From Thermomicrobiales bacterium (lineage in GTDB: Bacteria > Chloroflexota > Chloroflexia > Thermomicrobiales > CFX8): 64,000 bases of DNA. The position numbers and the translations under genes were made by a program. The notes beneath the pieces are model-generated. The model was given only the letters and a program-made list of their open reading frames with translations, searched no databases and had not been told where the DNA came from. The stretch is from positions 5,818-69,817 of the forward strand of contig JBAOIG010000003.1 in NCBI GenBank assembly GCA_037045155.1. The letters run 5' to 3'. Every line of letters starts with the position of its first letter. Position 1 is the stretch's first letter. This document shows positions 26,982-32,792 of the stretch, one piece after another.

Positions 26982-29783
26982 CTACCTGACCACGAAGTTG
27001 ATCAGGCGGCGAGGGACGTAGACTTCCTTGACGACTGTCTTGCCATCCAGATGCTCCGCCACACGTTCGATGCCACGGGCAGCTGCCAGCGCGGTGGGCT
27101 CATCGGCGGCTGGAGAGAGGCTGACGTGGCCGCGGACCTTGCCATTGACCTGGACGACGATCTCGATCGTGTCCTCGGCGGCCAGCTCCTCGCTCCACAC
27201 CGGCCAGGCTTGGGTATGCACCGAGAACGGCTTACCCAGCTTCTCCCACAGCTCTTCGGAGATATACGGCGCGCCGGGCGCCAGCAGCAGTGCCAGCGTC
27301 TCGATCGCCTCGCGCCATGCGGCAGTTGACGCAACGGCGGTGTCCTTCTGGCGCATCAGCTCGTTCACGAACTCCATCAGATGGGCGACCATCGTGTTGA
27401 ACGAGAACGACTCAATATCGCGGGTGACGACGCGGATCGTCTGGTGGGTGACTCGGCGCAGTTGGCGGGTAGCGCCGTCCTCGCGCGCCTCGGCCGGGTT
27501 TGCCATCGTCTCGTTCGCGACCGTCCAGACGCGGTCCAGGAACCGCTGCGGGCCGGCAATGCCACGCGAGTTCCACGGGCCACCGAGATTCCATGGCCCC
27601 AGGAACATCAGGAACAGCCGGACCGTATCAGCGCCCAGCTCGCTGACCAGCTCATCGGGATCGACGACGTTGCCGCGGCTCTTGGACATCTTCTCGGTGT
27701 CTTCGCCCAGGATGATGCCCTGATTGAACAATCGCAGGAACGGCTCGTCGTGATCGACCAGCCCCATGTCGCGAAGAGCCTTGGTGAAGAAGCGCGCGTA
27801 GAGCAGGTGCATCGTCATGTGCTCGACACCGCCGGTGTACTGATCCAGCGGCGTCCACTGGGCAACCCGCGCAGGGTCGATCGGCCCGTCTTCCTTGTGC
27901 GGTGTCAGGTAGCGATACCAGTACCACGACGAGTCCATGAAGGTGTCCATCGTGTCGGTCTCGCGCCGGCCCGGCCCGCCGCACGACGGACAGTTGACAT
28001 TCACGAATCGGTCGTCCGACTTCAGCGGCGATTCGCCCGTCGGGCTGAACTTTGAATCCTCCGGCAGGACGACCGGAAGATCCTCTTCCGGCACTGGCAC
28101 GACACCGCACCGGTCGCAGTAGATAATCGGGAACGGTGTGCCCCAGTAGCGCTGGCGCGAGATCAGCCAGTCGCGCAGTCTGTAGATCACTTCGCCTGCG
28201 CCGGCGTTGTGCTCCTCGAGCCAGTCGATCGTCGTTGCGATTGCAGCGCCACCAGGCGTGGTGCTCAGCGGGCCAGAGTTGATCATCTCGCCATGATCGC
28301 TGTGAAAGGTGATATCGGGTTCGGCGGTAAAGAACGGGATGTTGCGAAGGATCTCCATCGCCGTCCGGCCGGCGCCGGTGCGCTCGACGATCGCACGGTC
28401 CGAGTCGACACTCTCCAGCTCGATGGTCTTGTCCTCGAAGACGACGCCGGTGCGCGCGCCAGCGTAGGGAACCCACTGGCCGGTCTTCAGCTCAGCACGG
28501 ACCATCGATGTGAACTCCGTCATCTGGCGGCCGCTCAACGAAACATGAAATTCACCGCCGGCCTCGGTCGCGGTGACCTTCAGCGTTCCCAGCGCGTGCT
28601 GGAAGCTGGCGCGGTCGCCAACGGCTGCGAACGGCACAACCACGCGCACTTCGCCATCGAGCCGGCGGATGACCGGGATGATCGGCAGGCCGAACTTCAG
28701 CGCGAAGTCGAAGTCGCGTTCGTCGTGAGCCGGGACGGCCATGATCGCGCCGGTGCCGTAGGTGATCAAGACATAGTCGGCGATCCAGACAGGCACGCGC
28801 TCGTTGTTCACCGGGTTGATCGCGTAGCCGCCAGTGAAGACGCCGGTCTTCTCCTTCTCGGTGGACTGCCGGGCGATCTCTGATTCGCGAGCCGTCTGCG
28901 CCTGGTAGTCGGCTACGGCCCCACGCTGCTCATCGGTGGTCAGCTTCTCGACCAGTGGGTGTTCGGGGGCGAGCACCATGAACGTTGCGCCCCAGAGCGT
29001 GTCGGGCCGGGTGGTGAAGACCTCGATCGGATCGCCGTACTCGGTCGTGAAGGTCACCCGCGCGCCTTCGGATCGACCGATCCAGTTGCGCTGCATGATC
29101 TTGCCGCTCTCGGGCCAGACGACGCCGGGGTACTCCAGTAGCTCGTCGGCATACTTGGTGATCCGGAAGAACCACTGCTCCATCTGGCGCTGGTAGACCT
29201 CGGCGCCGCACCGCTCGCAACAACCGTCGACGACCTGCTCGTTGGCCAGCACGGTCTGATCGTTCGGGCACCACCAGACGTTCTGCTTCTTGCGGTAGGC
29301 CAGCCCGTTCTCCAGGAACTTCAGGAAGAACCACTGGTTCCACTTGTAGTACTCGGGCAGACAGGTGACGACTTCAGCGTCCCAGTCGAACATCGTGCCC
29401 ATGCTGCGCATCTGAGCGCGCATGTTCTCGATGTTGGAAAGGGTCCACTTGGTCGGGTGGATGTTGCGCTTGATCGCCGCGTTTTCGGCTGGCAGACCGA
29501 ACGCATCGAACCCCATTGGGAAGAAGACGTTGTAGCCCTGCATCCGCCGATAGCGCGCGGCAGTATCGGACGGCGTCATCGCGTACCAGTGGCCGATGTG
29601 CAGATCGCCGCTGGGGTAGGGGTACATCGTGACCGCGTACCATTTCGGCCGGGAGTCATCCTCCAGATCGGTGCGGTAGAGGCCGGTCTTCTCCCAGATA
29701 TCGCGCCATTTCGCTTCGACTGAGACCGGATCGAAACGTCCGGGCCGGGTCGCGCGGCCGGCCGCGCCATGTGTCGTGCTCAT
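26982..29783 (-). CDS. leuS: leucyl-tRNA synthetase
   Basis: 933 aa with the HIGH motif (YPYPSGDLHIGHWY), the KMSKS motif (EKMSKSRGNVV) and a CP1 editing domain. AGGAAGGTGA RBS lies before ATG 29783. Confidence 0.95.
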   Translation of the reverse strand: MSTTHGAAGRATRPGRFDPVSVEAKWRDIWEKTGLYRTDLEDDSRPKWYAVTMYPYPSGDLHIGHWYAMTPSDTAARYRRMQGYNVFFPMGFDAFGLPAENAAIKRNIHPTKWTLSNIENMRAQMRSMGTMFDWDAEVVTCLPEYYKWNQWFFLKFLENGLAYRKKQNVWWCPNDQTVLANEQVVDGCCERCGAEVYQRQMEQWFFRITKYADELLEYPGVVWPESGKIMQRNWIGRSEGARVTFTTEYGDPIEVFTTRPDTLWGATFMVLAPEHPLVEKLTTDEQRGAVADYQAQTARESEIARQSTEKEKTGVFTGGYAINPVNNERVPVWIADYVLITYGTGAIMAVPAHDERDFDFALKFGLPIIPVIRRLDGEVRVVVPFAAVGDRASFQHALGTLKVTATEAGGEFHVSLSGRQMTEFTSMVRAELKTGQWVPYAGARTGVVFEDKTIELESVDSDRAIVERTGAGRTAMEILRNIPFFTAEPDITFHSDHGEMINSGPLSTTPGGAAIATTIDWLEEHNAGAGEVIYRLRDWLISRQRYWGTPFPIIYCDRCGVVPVPEEDLPVVLPEDSKFSPTGESPLKSDDRFVNVNCPSCGGPGRRETDTMDTFMDSSWYWYRYLTPHKEDGPIDPARVAQWTPLDQYTGGVEHMTMHLLYARFFTKALRDMGLVDHDEPFLRLFNQGIILGEDTEKMSKSRGNVVDPDELVSELGADTVRLFLMFLGPWNLGGPWNSRGIAGPQRFLDRVWTVANETMANPAEAREDGATRQLRRVTHQTIRVVTRDIESFSFNTMVAHLMEFVNELMRQKDTAVASTAAWREAIETLALLLAPGAPYISEELWEKLGKPFSVHTQAWPVWSEELAAEDTIEIVVQVNGKVRGHVSLSPAADEPTALAAARGIERVAEHLDGKTVVKEVYVPRRLINFVVR

Positions 29784-30003
29784 TTCGGGTCACCTTCCTG
29801 GTCAGCCGATCGCTTCAACAGACCATGCTCGCCGTCGAACGGCCGATCCGTTCCGACGGCTCGGCAAGGAACCCGGCACGCCGGATGCCACGCGCAGACT
29901 CACCGGAGCCAGCCATCGGCTGCCTCGTCGGTCGTCTCACGCAGGTGAATCCGGACATCTCGTCGCCCCGCCTTCCAGAACCACGTCGTCCTGCCGTGAG
30001 CGA

Positions 30004-30046
30004 GAAAAAGCAACGAGCCTTCCGCCCGGTCAGGGACGAAAGGCTC
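30004..30046 (-). terminator. T-box attenuator (intrinsic terminator)
   Basis: GAGCCUUUCGUCCC-UGACC-GGGCGGAAGGCUC (30046-30015) is followed by GUUGCUUUUUC. The 5' arm overlaps the antiterminator 3' strand. Confidence 0.75.
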
Positions 30047-30096
30047 GGCTTCCGCGGTACCACCCTGCTTGGCCGGTCCCGCGTCATCCATGTGGG

Positions 30097-30169
30097 TGGA
30101 GCTGCGGGGACTCGAACCCCGTACCTCAACACTGCCAGTGTTGCGCTCTCCCGGATGAGCTACAGCCCC
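30097..30169 (-). tRNA. tRNA-Ala (anticodon GGC)
   Basis: Hand-folded cloverleaf: acceptor GGGGCUG/CAGCUCC with G3:U70; D arm GCUC-AUCCGGGA-GAGC; anticodon arm CAACA-CUGGCAG-UGUUG; variable AGGUA; T arm CGGGG-UUCGAGU-CCCCG; discriminator A73. CCA is not encoded (the genomic sequence reads CCC). Confidence 0.9.
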
Positions 30170-30344
30170 ATGACGATACGTGAGGCCGGCCCGCTTGGAG
30201 GCCTGATAACGGAGGCTACCCGGCGATGGCTCCTGGACGAGTTCGACCGCTCTGCCGCCTCACACCAACCGGCGGCTCGCTGTGTCCGGTCTACTGCTCC
30301 CGATCGACGCTACGCTCGTGCCACGGTCTCCCGTGAACCCGCTA

Positions 30345-30373
30345 ATAATACCGAGCGGCCGACAACCCGTCAA
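30345..30373 (-). promoter_or_regulatory. sigma70-type promoter of the T-box/tRNA-Ala/leuS transcript
   Basis: Minus strand TTGACG (30373-30368), 17-nt spacer, TATTAT (30350-30345). This lies ~30 nt upstream of the Stem I base. Confidence 0.55.
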
Positions 30374-30427
30374 ACTTCGTCGTCGTTGCGTGGATGATAG
30401 AGTGCGCAGGCACGAAAGGACGAGGAC

Positions 30428-31078
30428 ATGGCCGAGGCATCCGCGACGACTGACCAGATCCAGACGATCGGCGAGCGAGTCCTCGCCCGGCTGGATAGCA
30501 CCAACATCGCTCGTGAACGGGCGCTGGCCGAAACGCGCCAGATCGTGCGGATGAGCGCCAATGCGATCCGCGCCGTACATCGCAACGACTTCGCCGAGGC
30601 GCGCGATCTGCTGGCGAAAGCGCGCGCGATGCAGGACGCGCTGGCCGCCGACCTGCGCGACACGCCGAACATCTACTGGTCGGGCTACGTCCAGGACGCG
30701 CAGAAGGAGCTGGCCGAGGCGAACATCGTCCACGGCATCATCTCCGGCAGCGGCGTGCCGGGGCCGGAAGACCTCAACGTCGAAGACGCTGTCTATCTCA
30801 ACGGTCTGGCCGAAGCCGCCAGCGAGCTGCGCCGCTACATCCTCGACGCCCTCCGCCGCGACCAGCCGGAACGCACCGAGGCGCTGCTGCAGACGATGGA
30901 CGACGTCTACGGCCTGCTGGTCAGTGTCGATTACCCGGACGCTGTCACCGGCGGACTGCGGCGCACGACGGACATGCTGCGCGGCGTGCTGGAGCGCACC
31001 CGCGGCGACCTGACCATCTCGATGCAGCAACGCAGCCTGCTCGCGGCGCTGGACCGGGCGGCCAGCACGCCGACGTAG
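30428..31078 (+). CDS. translin family protein
   Basis: 216 aa, all-helical. The YLNGLAEAASELRRYILDAL block matches the conserved YL.GL.D..GEL.R of translin/TRAX by recall. The gene is divergent from the T-box promoter. Confidence 0.55.
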   Translation: MAEASATTDQIQTIGERVLARLDSTNIARERALAETRQIVRMSANAIRAVHRNDFAEARDLLAKARAMQDALAADLRDTPNIYWSGYVQDAQKELAEANIVHGIISGSGVPGPEDLNVEDAVYLNGLAEAASELRRYILDALRRDQPERTEALLQTMDDVYGLLVSVDYPDAVTGGLRRTTDMLRGVLERTRGDLTISMQQRSLLAALDRAASTPT

Positions 31079-31277
31079 GGTGGATTCGACACCCCCTCAA
31101 CGGATGCGCCGCTCGGTGACGCATGCTCTGATACCACGGCTCGCGCGATGCGGGTATCCTTGCCGAGCGCGACGCGGTCCGATCCTGCTGACGACGATAC
31201 CTGCACCGCCAACGAGCCGAGCGCCGGCGCCATCAGCCCTGCGACCCGCTGGCCGGCCCAACCCGTGGAGAAGTGCC

Positions 31278-32792
31278 ATGATGCGGCGAGGATCCCGGTT
31301 GCTGGCGCTGGTCGCCAGCGTGCTGTTTCTGATTGCTTCGGCAAGCCTGCCGGGGAAAGCGAGGGCAGACGATGTCTATGTCGTCTACTTTCCCTGGGTC
31401 TCGAACAACGAGACGATCGGTGGGCAAGGGCCGTGGTCGTCGACGCTTGCGATCCACAATCTGAGCAACAATCCCTGCCCCATGTCGGTCTACGTCGTCC
31501 AAACCAGCGGCTGGAATAAGACGGCGCAACTCTCGCTCAATGCGGCGTCGACGCGTTCGATCGCAGCATTGTCGCTCGGTGTGCCGAAGCCTGGTTCGCC
31601 CGTTCGTCTCGAAGCAACCTGTCCGATTGCCGCGAGCGTCAAGGCATTCGCGCCGGCCACTGCCGCAGCCCCATGGTCGGACGGCGCCGGCATTATCACC
31701 GGCTACACCGGGTTGAGCGAGTTCGACATCGCCGCGTCACGCAACGGGCCAGACGCTGGCTGGGTCCTGCCGCTCGTCCAGACCAACACCGGCTGGAACA
31801 CGCTCGTCACCATCGCGAACCTTGGCACGACGCGGGCTGACGTCACGCTGAATCTCTATGCGACGGGCAACGAGGACGGCGCGGACGGCGCGACACTCTC
31901 GCTCCAGCAGGAGATTGCGGCCGGCGGCGTCTGGACGATCGACGCGCAATCCGCGCTCGGCCAGACGGGCTGGGTCGGCTTTGCCCGTATCACAGCAAGT
32001 GGGAACATCGGGGTCATCGCCCGGCGGGTCAAGCCATCGGCGCAGATGGCGATGATCAACGTCGGAGTCGCGACGAGCAGCTTCGCGTCCGGGGCCTATC
32101 GATCGGCCGCGCCATTGCTGTTCAACAACTACAACGGGTGGAATACCGGTATCACGTTGGCCAATCCGTCCGCGATTCCCGCGACGGTGACTGTCGAGTA
32201 CCACGAGGCAGGAGGCACACACGTGTCGAATACCGAGGTCGTTGTTCCCCCCTTCTCGATGCAGTACATCTATACACCAGGCTCGGTTGCGCAAGACGGC
32301 TTTGTTGGCGGCGCGAATATCCTCAGCAACGTCCCGATCATCTCCTCTATCGACGAGGTGAAGTACGAGACGATCGAGGGGCTGTCCTACATGGCGAACG
32401 CCGGTGGACAGAGCGAGGTAACCATCCCGATTGTGTTCCGTGAGAATCCGAAGTACTTGCAACACGACAACTCCGGCATCGCCATCGCGAATCTCGACCC
32501 GGCCGCCAGCGTGACGGTTGCCATTGGCTTCCTGTCGCTCTATGGAGCGGATCTGCTGCCGACGCCGATACAGCTGACGATCCCGGCTGGCGGTGTTGGA
32601 ACGATCTACTTGCCGTTTGTCGACGGACTGCCGGCCGGCACCGTCGCAACCGCGCGGCTGACGACCGCTAGCCCGGCTGGCATCGTCGCAGTCTCGAACG
32701 ACGTCAATTACACGGTTGCGGGTGACGGCTCGGTCGTCTTCAACGCATGGGGCGCGACAGGGTCGTATATCGCCGGAGGGGCGGGGCAGTGA
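31278..32792 (+). CDS. secreted protein built from four copies of an unassigned beta-rich module (paralog of the 43923..47036 N-terminal half)
   Basis: ATG 31278 (GGAGAAG upstream) with signal peptide MMRRGSRLLALVASVLFLIASASLPGKARA. Recurring module starts: YFPWVSNNE..., LPLVQTNTGWNTLVTIANLG, APLLFNNYNGWNTGITLANP, IPIVFRENP...GIAIANLD. The C-terminal VSNDVNYTVAGDGSVVFNAWG matches VSANVDYQVQGDGSVIWNGYN in the paralog. Confidence 0.7.
   Translation: MMRRGSRLLALVASVLFLIASASLPGKARADDVYVVYFPWVSNNETIGGQGPWSSTLAIHNLSNNPCPMSVYVVQTSGWNKTAQLSLNAASTRSIAALSLGVPKPGSPVRLEATCPIAASVKAFAPATAAAPWSDGAGIITGYTGLSEFDIAASRNGPDAGWVLPLVQTNTGWNTLVTIANLGTTRADVTLNLYATGNEDGADGATLSLQQEIAAGGVWTIDAQSALGQTGWVGFARITASGNIGVIARRVKPSAQMAMINVGVATSSFASGAYRSAAPLLFNNYNGWNTGITLANPSAIPATVTVEYHEAGGTHVSNTEVVVPPFSMQYIYTPGSVAQDGFVGGANILSNVPIISSIDEVKYETIEGLSYMANAGGQSEVTIPIVFRENPKYLQHDNSGIAIANLDPAASVTVAIGFLSLYGADLLPTPIQLTIPAGGVGTIYLPFVDGLPAGTVATARLTTASPAGIVAVSNDVNYTVAGDGSVVFNAWGATGSYIAGGAGQ

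Follow-up and report, generated by a model that had tools for sequence, protein, structure and literature searches.

Most class I T-boxes contain a Stem II, which is absent from those of the glyQS type, and T-boxes devoid of Stem II function. In a different setting, the Escherichia coli operon thrU-tyrU-glyT-thrT-tufB produces tRNAs and the mRNA of a translation factor from one promoter, the products being parted by RNase P and by 3' processing. The discriminator domain of the T-boxes is framed by a defined motif, 5'-RRRxG-Stem III-AA-3' (PMC7583486), and Stem III is known to be tolerant of variation and of insertions (PMC7583486; PMC7913692). Riboswitch leaders are also subject to cleavage: a cut upstream of the terminator alters the stability of the mRNA, as for the thrS mRNA of Bacillus subtilis, which is stabilised after leader cleavage, and the pbuE adenine riboswitch is cut by RNase P (PMC7913692; PMC3997798). 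The locus described below combines a T-box and a tRNA gene in another manner.

The sequence originates from a Thermomicrobiales bacterium (assembly GCA_037045155.1, contig JBAOIG010000003.1, positions 5,818-69,817 of the forward strand). The whole stretch of 64,000 nt that was analysed is referred to as the window, and all coordinates are those of the window. On its minus strand are found successively a sigma-70-type promoter, the leader of a Leu (CUC) T-box containing a tRNA-Ala(GGC), a terminator and the gene leuS. The features of the locus are the following:

30345..30373, minus strand: sigma-70-type promoter, -35 box TTGACG (30373-30368), 17-nt spacer, -10 box TATTAT (30350-30345), 10 matches out of 12
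30229..30310, minus strand: Stem I of the T-box, with AGUA, the AG bulge AGCGAG, the distal loop GGUUGGUGUGA and the specifier loop GAA-CUC-G (RF00230 alignment)
30239..30241, minus strand: specifier codon CUC (Leu), followed by the purine G30238 (sequence and RF00230 alignment)
between 30226 and 30225, minus strand: point of the 27-nt Stem II deletion, just upstream of Stem IIA (alignment with the relative L072 and spacing statistics)
30207..30222, minus strand: Stem IIA hairpin CGG-GUAGCCU-CCG with the F-box CCGUUA (30212-30207; RF00230 alignment)
30192..30196, minus strand: purine string AAGCG (RRRxG motif), directly 5' of Stem III (motif from PMC7583486)
30185..30191, minus strand: 5' strand of Stem III, GGCCGGC, partner of 30077-30071 (covariation)
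30170..30184, minus strand: 5' leader of the tRNA inside Stem III, CUCACGUAUCGUCAU (flank duplex energy)
30097..30169, minus strand: tRNA-Ala(GGC), 73 nt, from G1 (30169) to A73 (30097), anticodon at 30136-30134 (ARAGORN, Rfam)
30078..30096, minus strand: 3' trailer of the tRNA inside Stem III, CCCACAUGGAUGACGCGGG (sequence, duplex energies)
30071..30077, minus strand: 3' strand of Stem III, ACCGGCC (covariation)
30069..30070, minus strand: conserved AA, directly 3' of Stem III (motif from PMC7583486)
30053..30066, minus strand: T-box sequence AGGGUGGUACCGCG with the UGGU bulge (RF00230 alignment)
30032..30066, minus strand: antiterminator, from the T-box sequence through its partner CGUCCCU (30038-30032; RF00230 alignment)
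30004..30047, minus strand: intrinsic terminator, 14-bp stem (30047-30014) followed by the tract UUGCUUUUUC (hairpin and T tract search)
29784..30003, minus strand: spacer of about 220 nt from the terminator to the start of leuS (conserved with L072)
26982..29783, minus strand: leuS, leucine--tRNA ligase, 933 aa (NCBIfam TIGR00396)

The product of leuS matches TIGR00396 with 980.9 bits, for a cutoff of 548. A protein-coding function of the leader was considered and rejected, the overlapping open reading frames on both strands being without a Pfam family match.

In a local search, the Rfam model RF00230 spans its positions 1 to 219 at 30029-30316 (59.7 bits, E-value 1.6e-12) and recovers Stem I and the antiterminator as parts of one T-box. 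The alignment displays a single insertion of 107 nt, versus 5 nt in the model, localized in the loop of Stem III. Because 59.7 bits is below the Rfam gathering score of 93, a default scan at gathering thresholds reports only the tRNA, and the T-box is seen only with permissive filters; the shortfall is due to the 107-nt insertion and to the deletion of Stem II. The specifier loop GAA-CUC-G agrees with the consensus GAA-NNN-R, in which the codon is followed by a purine, and the Leu codon corresponds to the regulated gene, leuS. The AG bulge AGCGAG and the distal loop GGUUGGUGUGA, which form the tRNA-elbow platform, fit the model consensus AGAGA and GgUUGGUGaaA with high posterior probability. 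The F-box hairpin CGG-GUAGCCU-CCG with CCGUUA is present, and the discriminator is framed as AAGCG-GGCCGGC...ACCGGCC-AA. The UGGU bulge in AGGGUGGUACCGCG is complementary to A73-CCA of tRNA-Leu. The antiterminator partner CGUCCCU lies within the 14-bp terminator stem, so that the two folds are mutually exclusive, and a T tract follows.

The inserted element was detected as a tRNA-Ala(GGC) by ARAGORN (30093-30170) and by the Rfam tRNA model RF00005 (30097-30169; 61.1 bits for a gathering score of 29, E-value 9e-11). It is the sole tRNA in the 64-kb window. It contains, in the Rfam alignment, the wobble pair G3:U70 and A73, which are identity elements of AlaRS. The CCA end is not encoded in the window, where CCC comes after A73, and this holds for 27 of the 113 orthologous copies among the matches listed, window included. 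Since CCA is often not encoded, a contact in cis between the ACCA of the embedded tRNA and the UGGU bulge was considered unlikely and was discarded. The initial annotation, made from the letters alone, had already read the promoter, the Stem I motifs with a CUC specifier matching leuS, the T-box sequence with its CGUCCCU partner and a complete tRNA-Ala(GGC) with G3:U70 and A73, and the searches agree with it on each of these points; the overlapping terminator and its T tract, described there with 13 bp, were found with 14 pairs at 30047-30004.

The sequences flanking the tRNA are complementary as initially described, CGUCAU (30175-30170) to AUGACG (30087-30082) and GGCCGG (30191-30186) to CCGGCC (30076-30071). 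The leader thus pairs in part with the trailer and prolongs Stem III to the acceptor stem, with a flank duplex energy of -23.3 kcal/mol in the window (z of -2.5 versus shuffled flanks); the register of this inner helix differs in L072. Stem III itself was examined by covariation on 40 to 109 related loci. With anchors placed by sequence alone, the pairs 1 to 5 are canonical in 85.6% of cases, versus 66.2% (maximum 70.5%) when the 3' strands are permuted among loci. In an alignment of 40 sequences, all seven pairs display changes on both sides, and the covariation score is 0.55, versus 0.156 in shuffles (none of 500 reaches 0.55) and at most 0.11 in slid registers. The related loci have RAGYG at the position of RRRxG and, among the matches listed, AA at 3-4 nt before GGGUGG in 109 of 112. 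The site of the Rfam insertion, the RRRxG-AA frame and the covariation all place the tRNA at the tip of a Stem III helix, as had been proposed. In the compact loci the pairing between leader and trailer reaches within 1 nt of the tRNA, which could hinder RNase P. In this GC-rich sequence, shuffled controls fold as well as the module and the entire leader do (z of -0.6 and -0.9), and thermodynamic folding was therefore not used as support. An approach with MAFFT and RNAalifold over the full flanks was abandoned, as it left the variable leader and trailer unaligned and recovered only the cloverleaf; it was replaced by sequence-anchored alignments and per-locus duplex energies. A gapless 5-bp helix test was also set aside, because it under-counts short or interrupted helices and its control is inflated by related species.

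Other loci of this type were detected with a pattern in which a T-box sequence is closely preceded by the T-arm of any tRNA, and which recovered at least 120 loci. Among the 120 matches listed, 112 carry a tRNA-Ala(GGC) and one a tRNA-Val, with no other tRNA, and leuS is downstream in 110; in the locus L110 a tRNA-Val is combined with thrS. The specifier loop GAA-CUC-R is found in 103 of 109 loci among the matches listed, and CUC occurs in a variant loop in three more. The carriers, more than 110 species from at least six phylum-level groups, belong to the Chloroflexota, Bacillota, Armatimonadota, Sysuimicrobiota, Coprothermobacterota and Caldisericota, and include the cultured Syntrophomonas wolfei, Desulfofundulus thermosubterraneus and Ktedonobacter racemifer. 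An ilvE-leuS unit is present in some relatives. The alignment to positions 1 to 219 of RF00230 runs through the tRNA not only in the window but also in three metagenome loci and in 17 of 18 related loci, and ten tRNA-bearing relatives exceed the gathering score despite the insert (94-122 bits). A terminator-like hairpin followed by a T tract was found in 97 of 113 related loci. The initial annotation implied a singular feature of one genome, which does not hold, and the comparison that it proposed with relatives shows that the insert recurs across several phyla. Judged by these comparisons, the nesting of the tRNA in the T-box is a conserved and widespread design. The tRNA-bearing loci are not monophyletic on a rough neighbour-joining tree of LeuS, and a single origin is therefore not claimed. 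No description of a tRNA nested in a T-box was found in the full-text literature searched, the two classic comparative surveys being outside its scope; this agrees with the earlier statement that none had been described.

From the sequence evidence, the predicted leuS promoter is the one that drives a Leu (CUC) transcriptional T-box in which a tRNA-Ala(GGC) gene replaces the apical loop of Stem III, and the locus is probably a single transcription unit with two products, tRNA-Ala(GGC) and the leuS mRNA. In such a unit, Stem I would capture tRNA-Leu(GAG), then the cloverleaf of tRNA-Ala would fold and bring together the two strands of Stem III, and the UGGU bulge would test the 3' end of the bound tRNA-Leu. 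Transcription would then either stop at the terminator or read through into leuS. The tRNA being contained in every initiated transcript, the output of tRNA-Ala(GGC) would follow the firing rate of the promoter, independently of leucine status, and the conditional terminator of the T-box would double as that of the tRNA gene. RNase P would cut at G1 and the trailer would be trimmed by a 3' endonuclease or by exonucleases; as CCA is not encoded in the window, RNase Z followed by CCA addition would be expected. These cuts would free the tRNA and part the Stem I sensor from the rest, so that the remaining read-through leuS mRNA would begin just before the antiterminator/terminator hairpin. The weakest step of the explanation concerns the partnership between Ala(GGC) and leuS, which seems to be old and inherited and not dictated by function. 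We advance only tentatively, and with more doubt than belief, that the nested tRNA is an ancient, integral module dating to an early Chloroflexota-Bacillota ancestor, whose maturation couples the decision of the riboswitch, the fate of the mRNA and the supply of tRNA. If true, terminated leaders would be recycled into an essential tRNA, read-through would give a leuS mRNA with a 5' hairpin cap, and the module would bear on the co-evolution of T-boxes and tRNA genes.

Among the other explanations, the tRNA could be an active part of the switch, either as a folding clamp or through an obligatory RNase P cut setting the stability or translation of the leuS mRNA or the release of tRNA-Leu. The same tRNA at the same position across phyla points in this direction, as do the tight spacing (medians of 6 nt from the 7-nt 5' strand of Stem III to G1 and of 9 nt from A73 to the 3' strand), the flank pairing that extends Stem III into the acceptor stem, and the precedents of thrS and of the Staphylococcus aureus met operon for a leader cleavage that sets mRNA stability. 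However, two close LeuS relatives (L138 and L151) have leuS T-boxes with an ordinary short hairpin in the same RRRxG/AA frame and no tRNA, which shows that a leuS T-box can do without the tRNA. Moreover, in the locus L122 the same tRNA sits upstream of Stem I, and the flank lengths vary widely, from 9 to 45 nt on the 5' side and from 8 to 36 nt on the 3' side. We consider an active role unlikely.

The decay of the T-box has also to be weighed. The T-box would then be a relic and the locus a tRNA-Ala gene endowed with a long leader and a terminator, without sensing of tRNA-Leu, leuS being expressed by constitutive leak-through or from another start. The initial annotation had reported a Stem II and an F-box; the F-box CCGUUA stands (30212-30207), whereas Stem II with its S-turn is missing, 3 nt being found for 27 in the RF00230 model. 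The alignment with L072, the nearest relative, displays a clean 27-nt deletion that takes out the Stem II hairpin, and the spacing across this region is 42 nt for a median of 63. This loss and the score below the gathering threshold may indicate that the switch of the window is weakened. Degenerate forms without Stem I exist: L115 and L119 contain a promoter, a tRNA-Ala(CGC), a tRNA-Ala(GGC), a T-box sequence with terminator, and leuS, and L094 is similar; the T-box can thus decay while the tRNA stays. Furthermore, other signals could lie in the 220-nt spacer that precedes leuS, a conserved stretch sharing about 80% identity with L072 and nearly invariant over roughly its first 85 nt. On the other hand, no promoter-like site was found in this spacer (29784-30003), and in the window the Stem I motifs, CUC, the F-box hairpin, RRRxG/AA, UGGU and the antiterminator/terminator are all intact. 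The leader is 81% identical to that of L072 outside the deletion, and the short spacing is shared by 11 of 106 loci that keep the rest of the T-box. Stem II is not universal in the family, as illustrated by the functional T-boxes of the glyQS class, and its absence leaves the membership intact. A relic is in our opinion a still less probable reading than an active role of the tRNA.

It is very improbable that the tRNA is transcribed independently from a promoter of its own within the leader and overlaps the T-box in a merely physical sense. Some AT-rich leaders of Syntrophomonas have a TATAAT at the F-box (CCGUUAUAAU) with a poor -35 box, and nothing specific favours this hypothesis otherwise. 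The only promoter-like site between 29700 and 30500 is TTGACG-17-TATTAT (0.1 expected in shuffles), the promoter already named at the outset, which is upstream of Stem I and is kept in L072 as TTGACT-17-TATGAT. Of 101 related loci, 77 have a sigma-70-like site ahead of Stem I and none has a promoter-like site within the 120 nt preceding the tRNA, in accordance with the earlier view that the tRNA has no separate promoter. In 100 of 101 loci the interval from the specifier to the tRNA is devoid of any site that satisfies the sigma-70 criteria, the exception being L119, which is without Stem I; the 35-50 nt before the tRNA are taken up by conserved elements of the T-box.

That the cloverleaf is a tRNA-like mimic or a pseudogene is barely conceivable, for although CCA is not encoded in the window and weak Rfam matches to tmRNA and mascRNA exist, the Rfam tRNA model scores 61 bits in the window and 53-70 in its relatives, the 113 orthologous copies among the matches listed all share the anticodon GGC, G3:U70 and A73, and the cloverleaf is 100% paired in 40 orthologues with compensatory changes in all four stems. 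In the acceptor stem, 14 variants occur among the 113 copies listed, every one compensated. The tmRNA and mascRNA matches were rejected as clan or similarity artefacts, those to tmRNA reflecting its tRNA-Ala-like domain. On comparative grounds, the tRNA gene is predicted to be functional, as indicated by its invariant identity elements and compensated stems.

T-boxes are textbook examples of RNAs that read tRNAs, and a tRNA gene within their aminoacylation-sensing domain would surprise specialists. This raises the questions of whether folding and sensing by the discriminator are possible when Stem III is capped by an element as large as a tRNA, whether the cleavage of a riboswitch by RNase P can be a normal step of its life cycle, whether the normally wasted product of attenuation is used as a tRNA precursor, and why Ala(GGC) is linked to leuS. 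In terms of annotation, about half of these leaders, including that of the window, fall below the Rfam T-box threshold because of the insert; standard pipelines miss or split them and annotate the tRNA as a free-standing gene.

The locus shares with the canonical transcriptional T-boxes of synthetase genes (RF00230; tyrS, leuS and glyQS of B. subtilis) the specifier and elbow platform of Stem I and the F-box hairpin, as well as the RRRxG-Stem III-AA frame, the UGGN bulge, the exclusive antiterminator and terminator, and a gene matching the specifier. Contrary to the canonical Stem III, which is a short variable hairpin, the loop is here composed of a 73-nt tRNA with its leader and trailer (107 nt), and, unlike in Stem II-bearing T-boxes, Stem II is absent. 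T-boxes with lineage-specific inserts tolerate large insertions by or in the discriminator or linker while keeping their function, and the insertion described here is comparable; however, those inserts consist of simple stem-loops without a gene product and are confined to a single genus, whereas a tRNA gene is found here inside Stem III and in several phyla. The leaders of thrS and thrZ of B. subtilis are cut upstream of the terminator hairpin, which parts the sensor from the mRNA as the predicted cut would do here, but there the enzyme is RNase J1 or RNase Y and the site is unstructured, whereas the ordinary maturation enzymes would act here on a true pre-tRNA. Similarly, RNase P acts in pbuE on a substrate unlike a tRNA, whereas its putative substrate in the leuS leader is a true pre-tRNA. 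Finally, in thrU-tyrU-glyT-thrT-tufB the tRNAs merely precede the mRNA, whereas the tRNA-Ala(GGC) is here nested in a regulatory fold, upstream of a conditional terminator.

On the minus strand of the window, a tRNA-Ala(GGC) gene lies within the T-box leader of leuS. The promoter is followed by the T-box leader, the terminator, a spacer of ~220 nt and leuS.

Elements of the leuS region of the window
30373-30345, minus strand: sigma-70-type promoter TTGACG-17-TATTAT (sequence motif)
30316-30029, minus strand: T-box leader (Rfam T-box model)
30169-30097, minus strand: tRNA-Ala(GGC) (ARAGORN and Rfam)
30047-30004, minus strand: intrinsic terminator, 14-bp hairpin with a T tract
29784-30003, minus strand: spacer of ~220 nt between the terminator and leuS
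29783-26982, minus strand: leuS (TIGR00396, 981 bits)

The promoter was recovered as the initial annotation had described it, and so was the terminator with its U-tract, the stem having 14 bp where 13 had been given; TTGACG-17-TATTAT is the sole promoter-like site within 29700-30500 (shuffled sequences give 0.1). The tRNA, announced as complete with G3:U70 and A73, is called with these features by both ARAGORN and Rfam (61.1 bits for a threshold of 29, E 9e-11) and is the single tRNA of the whole 64 kb. CCC follows A73, CCA not being encoded. A match of the tmRNA family RF00023 on the nested tRNA-Ala (37-45 bits) was rejected, since it reflects the tRNA-Ala-like domain of tmRNA; in the window (30097-30169) and at many other loci this match sometimes displaces the tRNA call within the Rfam clan, an annotation pitfall. 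Upstream of the leuS promoter, the divergent neighbours on the plus strand are a 216-aa ORF (30428-31078), which matched no Pfam family, and a 570-aa ORF (31080-32792), with just a sub-threshold DUF5719 match in Pfam and none in NCBIfam. The leuS spacer contains no promoter-like site. It is ~80% identical to that of L072, a Thermomicrobiales MAG that is the nearest relative of the window, and its first ~85 nt are nearly invariant. An ATG near 29958 opens an ORF of ~47 codons that is still open in L072 despite a 3-nt indel.

With the default Rfam scan, the T-box of the window remains below the gathering score. With permissive filters, positions 1-219 of the Rfam T-box model align end to end to 30316-30029 (59.7 bits, E 1.6e-12), so that the Stem I/specifier and antiterminator halves are recovered as one T-box. 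This alignment contains the previously described specifier loop GAA-CUC-G, AG bulge, distal loop and F-box hairpin, as well as the T-box sequence AGGGUGGUACCGCG with its partner CGUCCCU inside the terminator stem. It also bears out the position given for the tRNA, as its one 107-nt insertion falls exactly at the 5-nt Stem III loop of the model. Stem III is part of the discriminator domain that senses aminoacylation (structural work summarised in PMC7583486), and is held in the conserved frame 5'-RRRxG-Stem III-AA-3' whereas its own stem and loop are variable (PMC7583486). The window reads AAGCG-GGCCGGC-[15 nt]-tRNA-[19 nt]-ACCGGCC-AA-GCA-GGGUGG. Frame and Stem III base are both preserved, and the loop has been replaced by the tRNA together with its short leader and trailer. 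These two flanks form additional pairs with each other (-23.3 kcal/mol; z of -2.5 relative to shuffled flanks); the inner CGUCAU/AUGACG pairing proposed earlier exists in the window, but L072 does not keep its register.

A scan of 185,579 species, each represented by one genome, looked for tRNA T-arms of any kind with the T-box sequence 22-52 nt behind them, using the pattern GGTTCRANTCC-N(22-52)-GGGTGGNACCGCG; a tRNA at this distance can only lie inside the leader. The pattern has recovered at least 120 loci. In the 120 matches listed, tRNA-Ala(GGC) occupies that place in 112 and tRNA-Val(GAC) in one, and seven have no tRNA call. In four of these seven (L024, L029, L088 and L090) the tRNA is probably cut off, because leuS lies downstream and the match is at the locus edge; the remaining three are probably chance matches. 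As all eight T-arm variants permitted by the pattern are seen among the listed Ala tRNAs, the pattern did not select for Ala. Still among the matches listed, leuS is downstream on the same strand in 110 of 120 (in most exceptions the sequence ends first), GAA-CUC-R is found in 103 of the 109 leaders that extend far enough upstream (a further three have CUC within a variant loop), and a strong hairpin with a T tract follows the T-box sequence in 97/113. A full-length Rfam T-box spans the tRNA in 17 of the 18 loci tested, eight of them above the gathering score. The insert, whose conservation in related leuS leaders had been left to be checked, is consequently recurrent (at least 112 tRNA-Ala(GGC) loci) and not a one-off.

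Taxonomic labels of the 112 tRNA-Ala(GGC) loci among the matches listed
Chloroflexota, 43 loci: Thermomicrobiales, Chloroflexia, Anaerolineae, Ktedonobacter, Limnocylindria, Caldilineae
Bacillota, 46 loci: 27 Syntrophomonadaceae; Peptococcaceae, Desulfofundulus, Desulfitispora, Thermacetogeniaceae, others
Armatimonadota, 3 loci
Ca. Sysuimicrobiota, 3 loci
Coprothermobacterota, 2 loci
Caldisericota, 1 locus
Unclassified, 6 loci
Labels resembling mis-binned contigs, 8 loci

Cultured carriers include Syntrophomonas wolfei, S. palmitatica, Desulfofundulus thermosubterraneus, D. thermobenzoicus and Desulfitispora alkaliphila. Thermosyntropha lipolytica (L029) displays the pattern match and leuS downstream, its tRNA being cut off at the locus edge. 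The eight loci with unexpected labels (L005, L006, L017, L020, L046, L091, L094 and L102) are assigned to Acidiferrales, Proteobacteria, Methylocystaceae, Bacteroidales, Desulfarculaceae, Coriobacteriia or Bdellovibrionales. Six of them have a LeuS with 50-60% identity to that of the window, L091 and L102 having too little downstream sequence to see it; all eight are probably mis-binned MAG contigs and not true occurrences.

Minimum-free-energy folds of the GC-rich window sequence are no better than those of shuffles, and the case for the framing helix therefore rests on comparison. The register of Stem III was set solely by sequence anchors (the RAGYG motif, and AA 3-4 nt before GGGUGG). Among the matches listed, the five anchor-adjacent pairs are canonical in 85.6% of cases over 93 distinct flank combinations, against 66.2% (maximum 70.5%) when the 3' strands are permuted among loci and far less in slid registers, and 25 different 5-nt helices are found at the Stem III base. 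In an essentially gapless MAFFT alignment (A5) of 40 diverse sequences, each of the seven Stem III pairs shows changes in both partners, the share of paired cells is 96.8% (76.0% for shuffles), and the covariation score is 0.55 against 0.156 shuffled (0/500 reach it; slid partners at most 0.11); this subset was picked for helix diversity, the full-set value of 85.6% being less selected. The median energy of the flank-to-flank duplex is -8.9 kcal/mol (-4.5 with shuffled flanks), and z is below -2 in 61/109 loci among the matches listed. Where the locus is compact, no more than 1 nt separates the helix from G1, so that Stem III runs on into the acceptor stem. From these comparisons, the helix framing the nested tRNA is real.

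Stem II, which the initial annotation had claimed, is missing from the window (3 nt against 27 in the Rfam model). A clean 27-nt deletion at 30225-30226 (minus strand) relative to L072 takes out the Stem II hairpin of the latter, the leaders being otherwise 81% identical and the LeuS proteins 85%; this deletion and the 107-nt insertion together account for the low Rfam score. A spacing of at most 45 nt between specifier and Stem III also occurs in 11/106 related leaders among the matches listed, which suggests that Stem II was lost more than once. Given the loss of Stem II and the existence of forms that lack Stem I (L115, L119 and L094), the T-box of the window may be decaying; against this, every other T-box element of the window is intact, and functional T-boxes lacking Stem II are known. 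L115 (4400-4700) and L119 (3020-3300) consist of a promoter, tRNA-Ala(CGC), tRNA-Ala(GGC), a T-box sequence with terminator and leuS, and L094 resembles them with one tRNA; they look like T-boxes that have lost the sensor and kept tRNA and terminator.

Metagenome contigs were searched with a LeuS alignment, without any requirement on the leader. Among the 68 leuS loci whose upstream sequence was long enough, Rfam detects a Leu T-box in six and no T-box in the other 62. Three of these six carry tRNA-Ala(GGC) inside Stem III, in two (L138 and L151) the same frame encloses a short Stem III hairpin of the ordinary kind, and in L122 (Ga0114919_10021048, 1259-1703) tRNA-Ala(GGC) lies ~160 nt upstream of the T-box, not in Stem III. 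tRNA-Ala(GGC) adjoins leuS in 4/6 T-box loci versus 0/62 others (hypergeometric p ~2e-5). Outside Bacilli, the nested form is a common, though not obligatory, type of leuS T-box. An active part of the nested tRNA in the switch is possible, but it is not required, since leuS T-boxes without tRNA exist. In a rough neighbour-joining tree of LeuS, tRNA-bearing loci are interleaved with lineages without T-box; a single ancient origin with many losses is not distinguishable from transfer. Unrelated riboswitches occur nearby: in L154 (3351-3437), a c-di-GMP-I aptamer (84 bits) closely precedes the T-box and lies on the other strand, and L138 (6588-6737) has a Moco riboswitch (59 bits) near leuS.

Among the matches listed, a sigma-70-like promoter precedes Stem I in 77/101 loci, its -10 element clustering 150-210 nt before the tRNA, whereas the last 120 nt before the tRNA contain no promoter-like site in these 101 loci. 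The tRNA had been said to lack a separate promoter, and these counts agree. An internal promoter is unlikely, the lone internal site being that of L119, which has no Stem I. It is likewise unlikely that the tRNA is a non-functional mimic: G3:U70 and A73 are present in 113/113 nested copies among the matches listed, the 14 acceptor-stem variants are all fully compensated, and the four stems of the cloverleaf combine 100% pairing with many double changes. CCA is encoded in 86/113 copies. The nested tRNA is thus predicted to be a working gene without its own promoter.

Several arrangements vary around this core. In 16 of the matches listed (including L021, L040, L050, L057 and L107), and also in L134 and L146, a tRNA-Ala(CGC) gene immediately precedes Stem I, at a distance of 180-360 nt from the nested tRNA-Ala(GGC); the aptamer thereby resembles a spacer between two tRNA-Ala genes. 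Most of these genomes are of Anaerolineae type. A class IV aminotransferase gene (~310 aa, ilvE-like; PF01063 confirmed for L060) separates T-box and leuS in L013, L028, L048, L049, L054-L056, L059, L060, L065, L076, L089, L107 and L108, where the switch hence controls an ilvE-leuS operon. Its place is taken by an AMP-binding acyl-CoA ligase (PF00501) in L023 and by an ORF of similar size (~560 aa) in L061. The Chloroflexia MAG locus L110 (CAWJIC010000064, 5400-5700) is a second, different pairing of tRNA, T-box-like element and synthetase: a promoter, tRNA-Val(GAC), 37 nt, the T-box-like discriminator GGGUGGGACCGCG with partner and hairpin, and a threonyl-tRNA synthetase gene (PF00587, PF03129, PF07973); Stem I was not detected there by Rfam.

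The initial annotation knew of no T-box with a resident tRNA gene, and none was found in the full-text literature searched, among it a review of T-boxes, the paper on the TBDB database and one on lineage-specific insertions in T-boxes; an earlier mention in older comparative genomics is possible. Here, a genuine T-box and a genuine tRNA are combined in a conserved nested architecture that we did not find documented.

The analysis establishes the anatomy; it also shows that both functional RNAs are conserved, that the discriminator frame is intact and that there is one promoter, with a terminator directly behind the tRNA. The tRNA would be made from every initiated leader transcript, terminated or read through, and the T-box terminator would double as that of the tRNA gene. 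The cloverleaf would already be folded when synthesis of the 3' strand of Stem III begins and would bring both strands together, which would render the insertion topologically neutral, and the tRNA-Leu decision would be taken as in other T-boxes. Historical contingency in an old arrangement is the favoured explanation for Ala(GGC) as partner; the arrangement would be hard to undo if the nested gene is the sole gene for an essential tRNA. Once the tRNA-Leu decision is taken, RNase P, which cuts other riboswitches (PMC7913692, PMC3997798), and 3' processing would free tRNA-Ala; as the window encodes no CCA, its tRNA is expected to need RNase Z and CCA addition. The cleavages would sever Stem I from the expression platform and leave the read-through leuS mRNA with the antiterminator/terminator hairpin near its 5' end, an outcome similar to that in B. 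subtilis thrS, whose mRNA is stabilised when the leader is cut shortly before the terminator (PMC7913692, PMC3997798).
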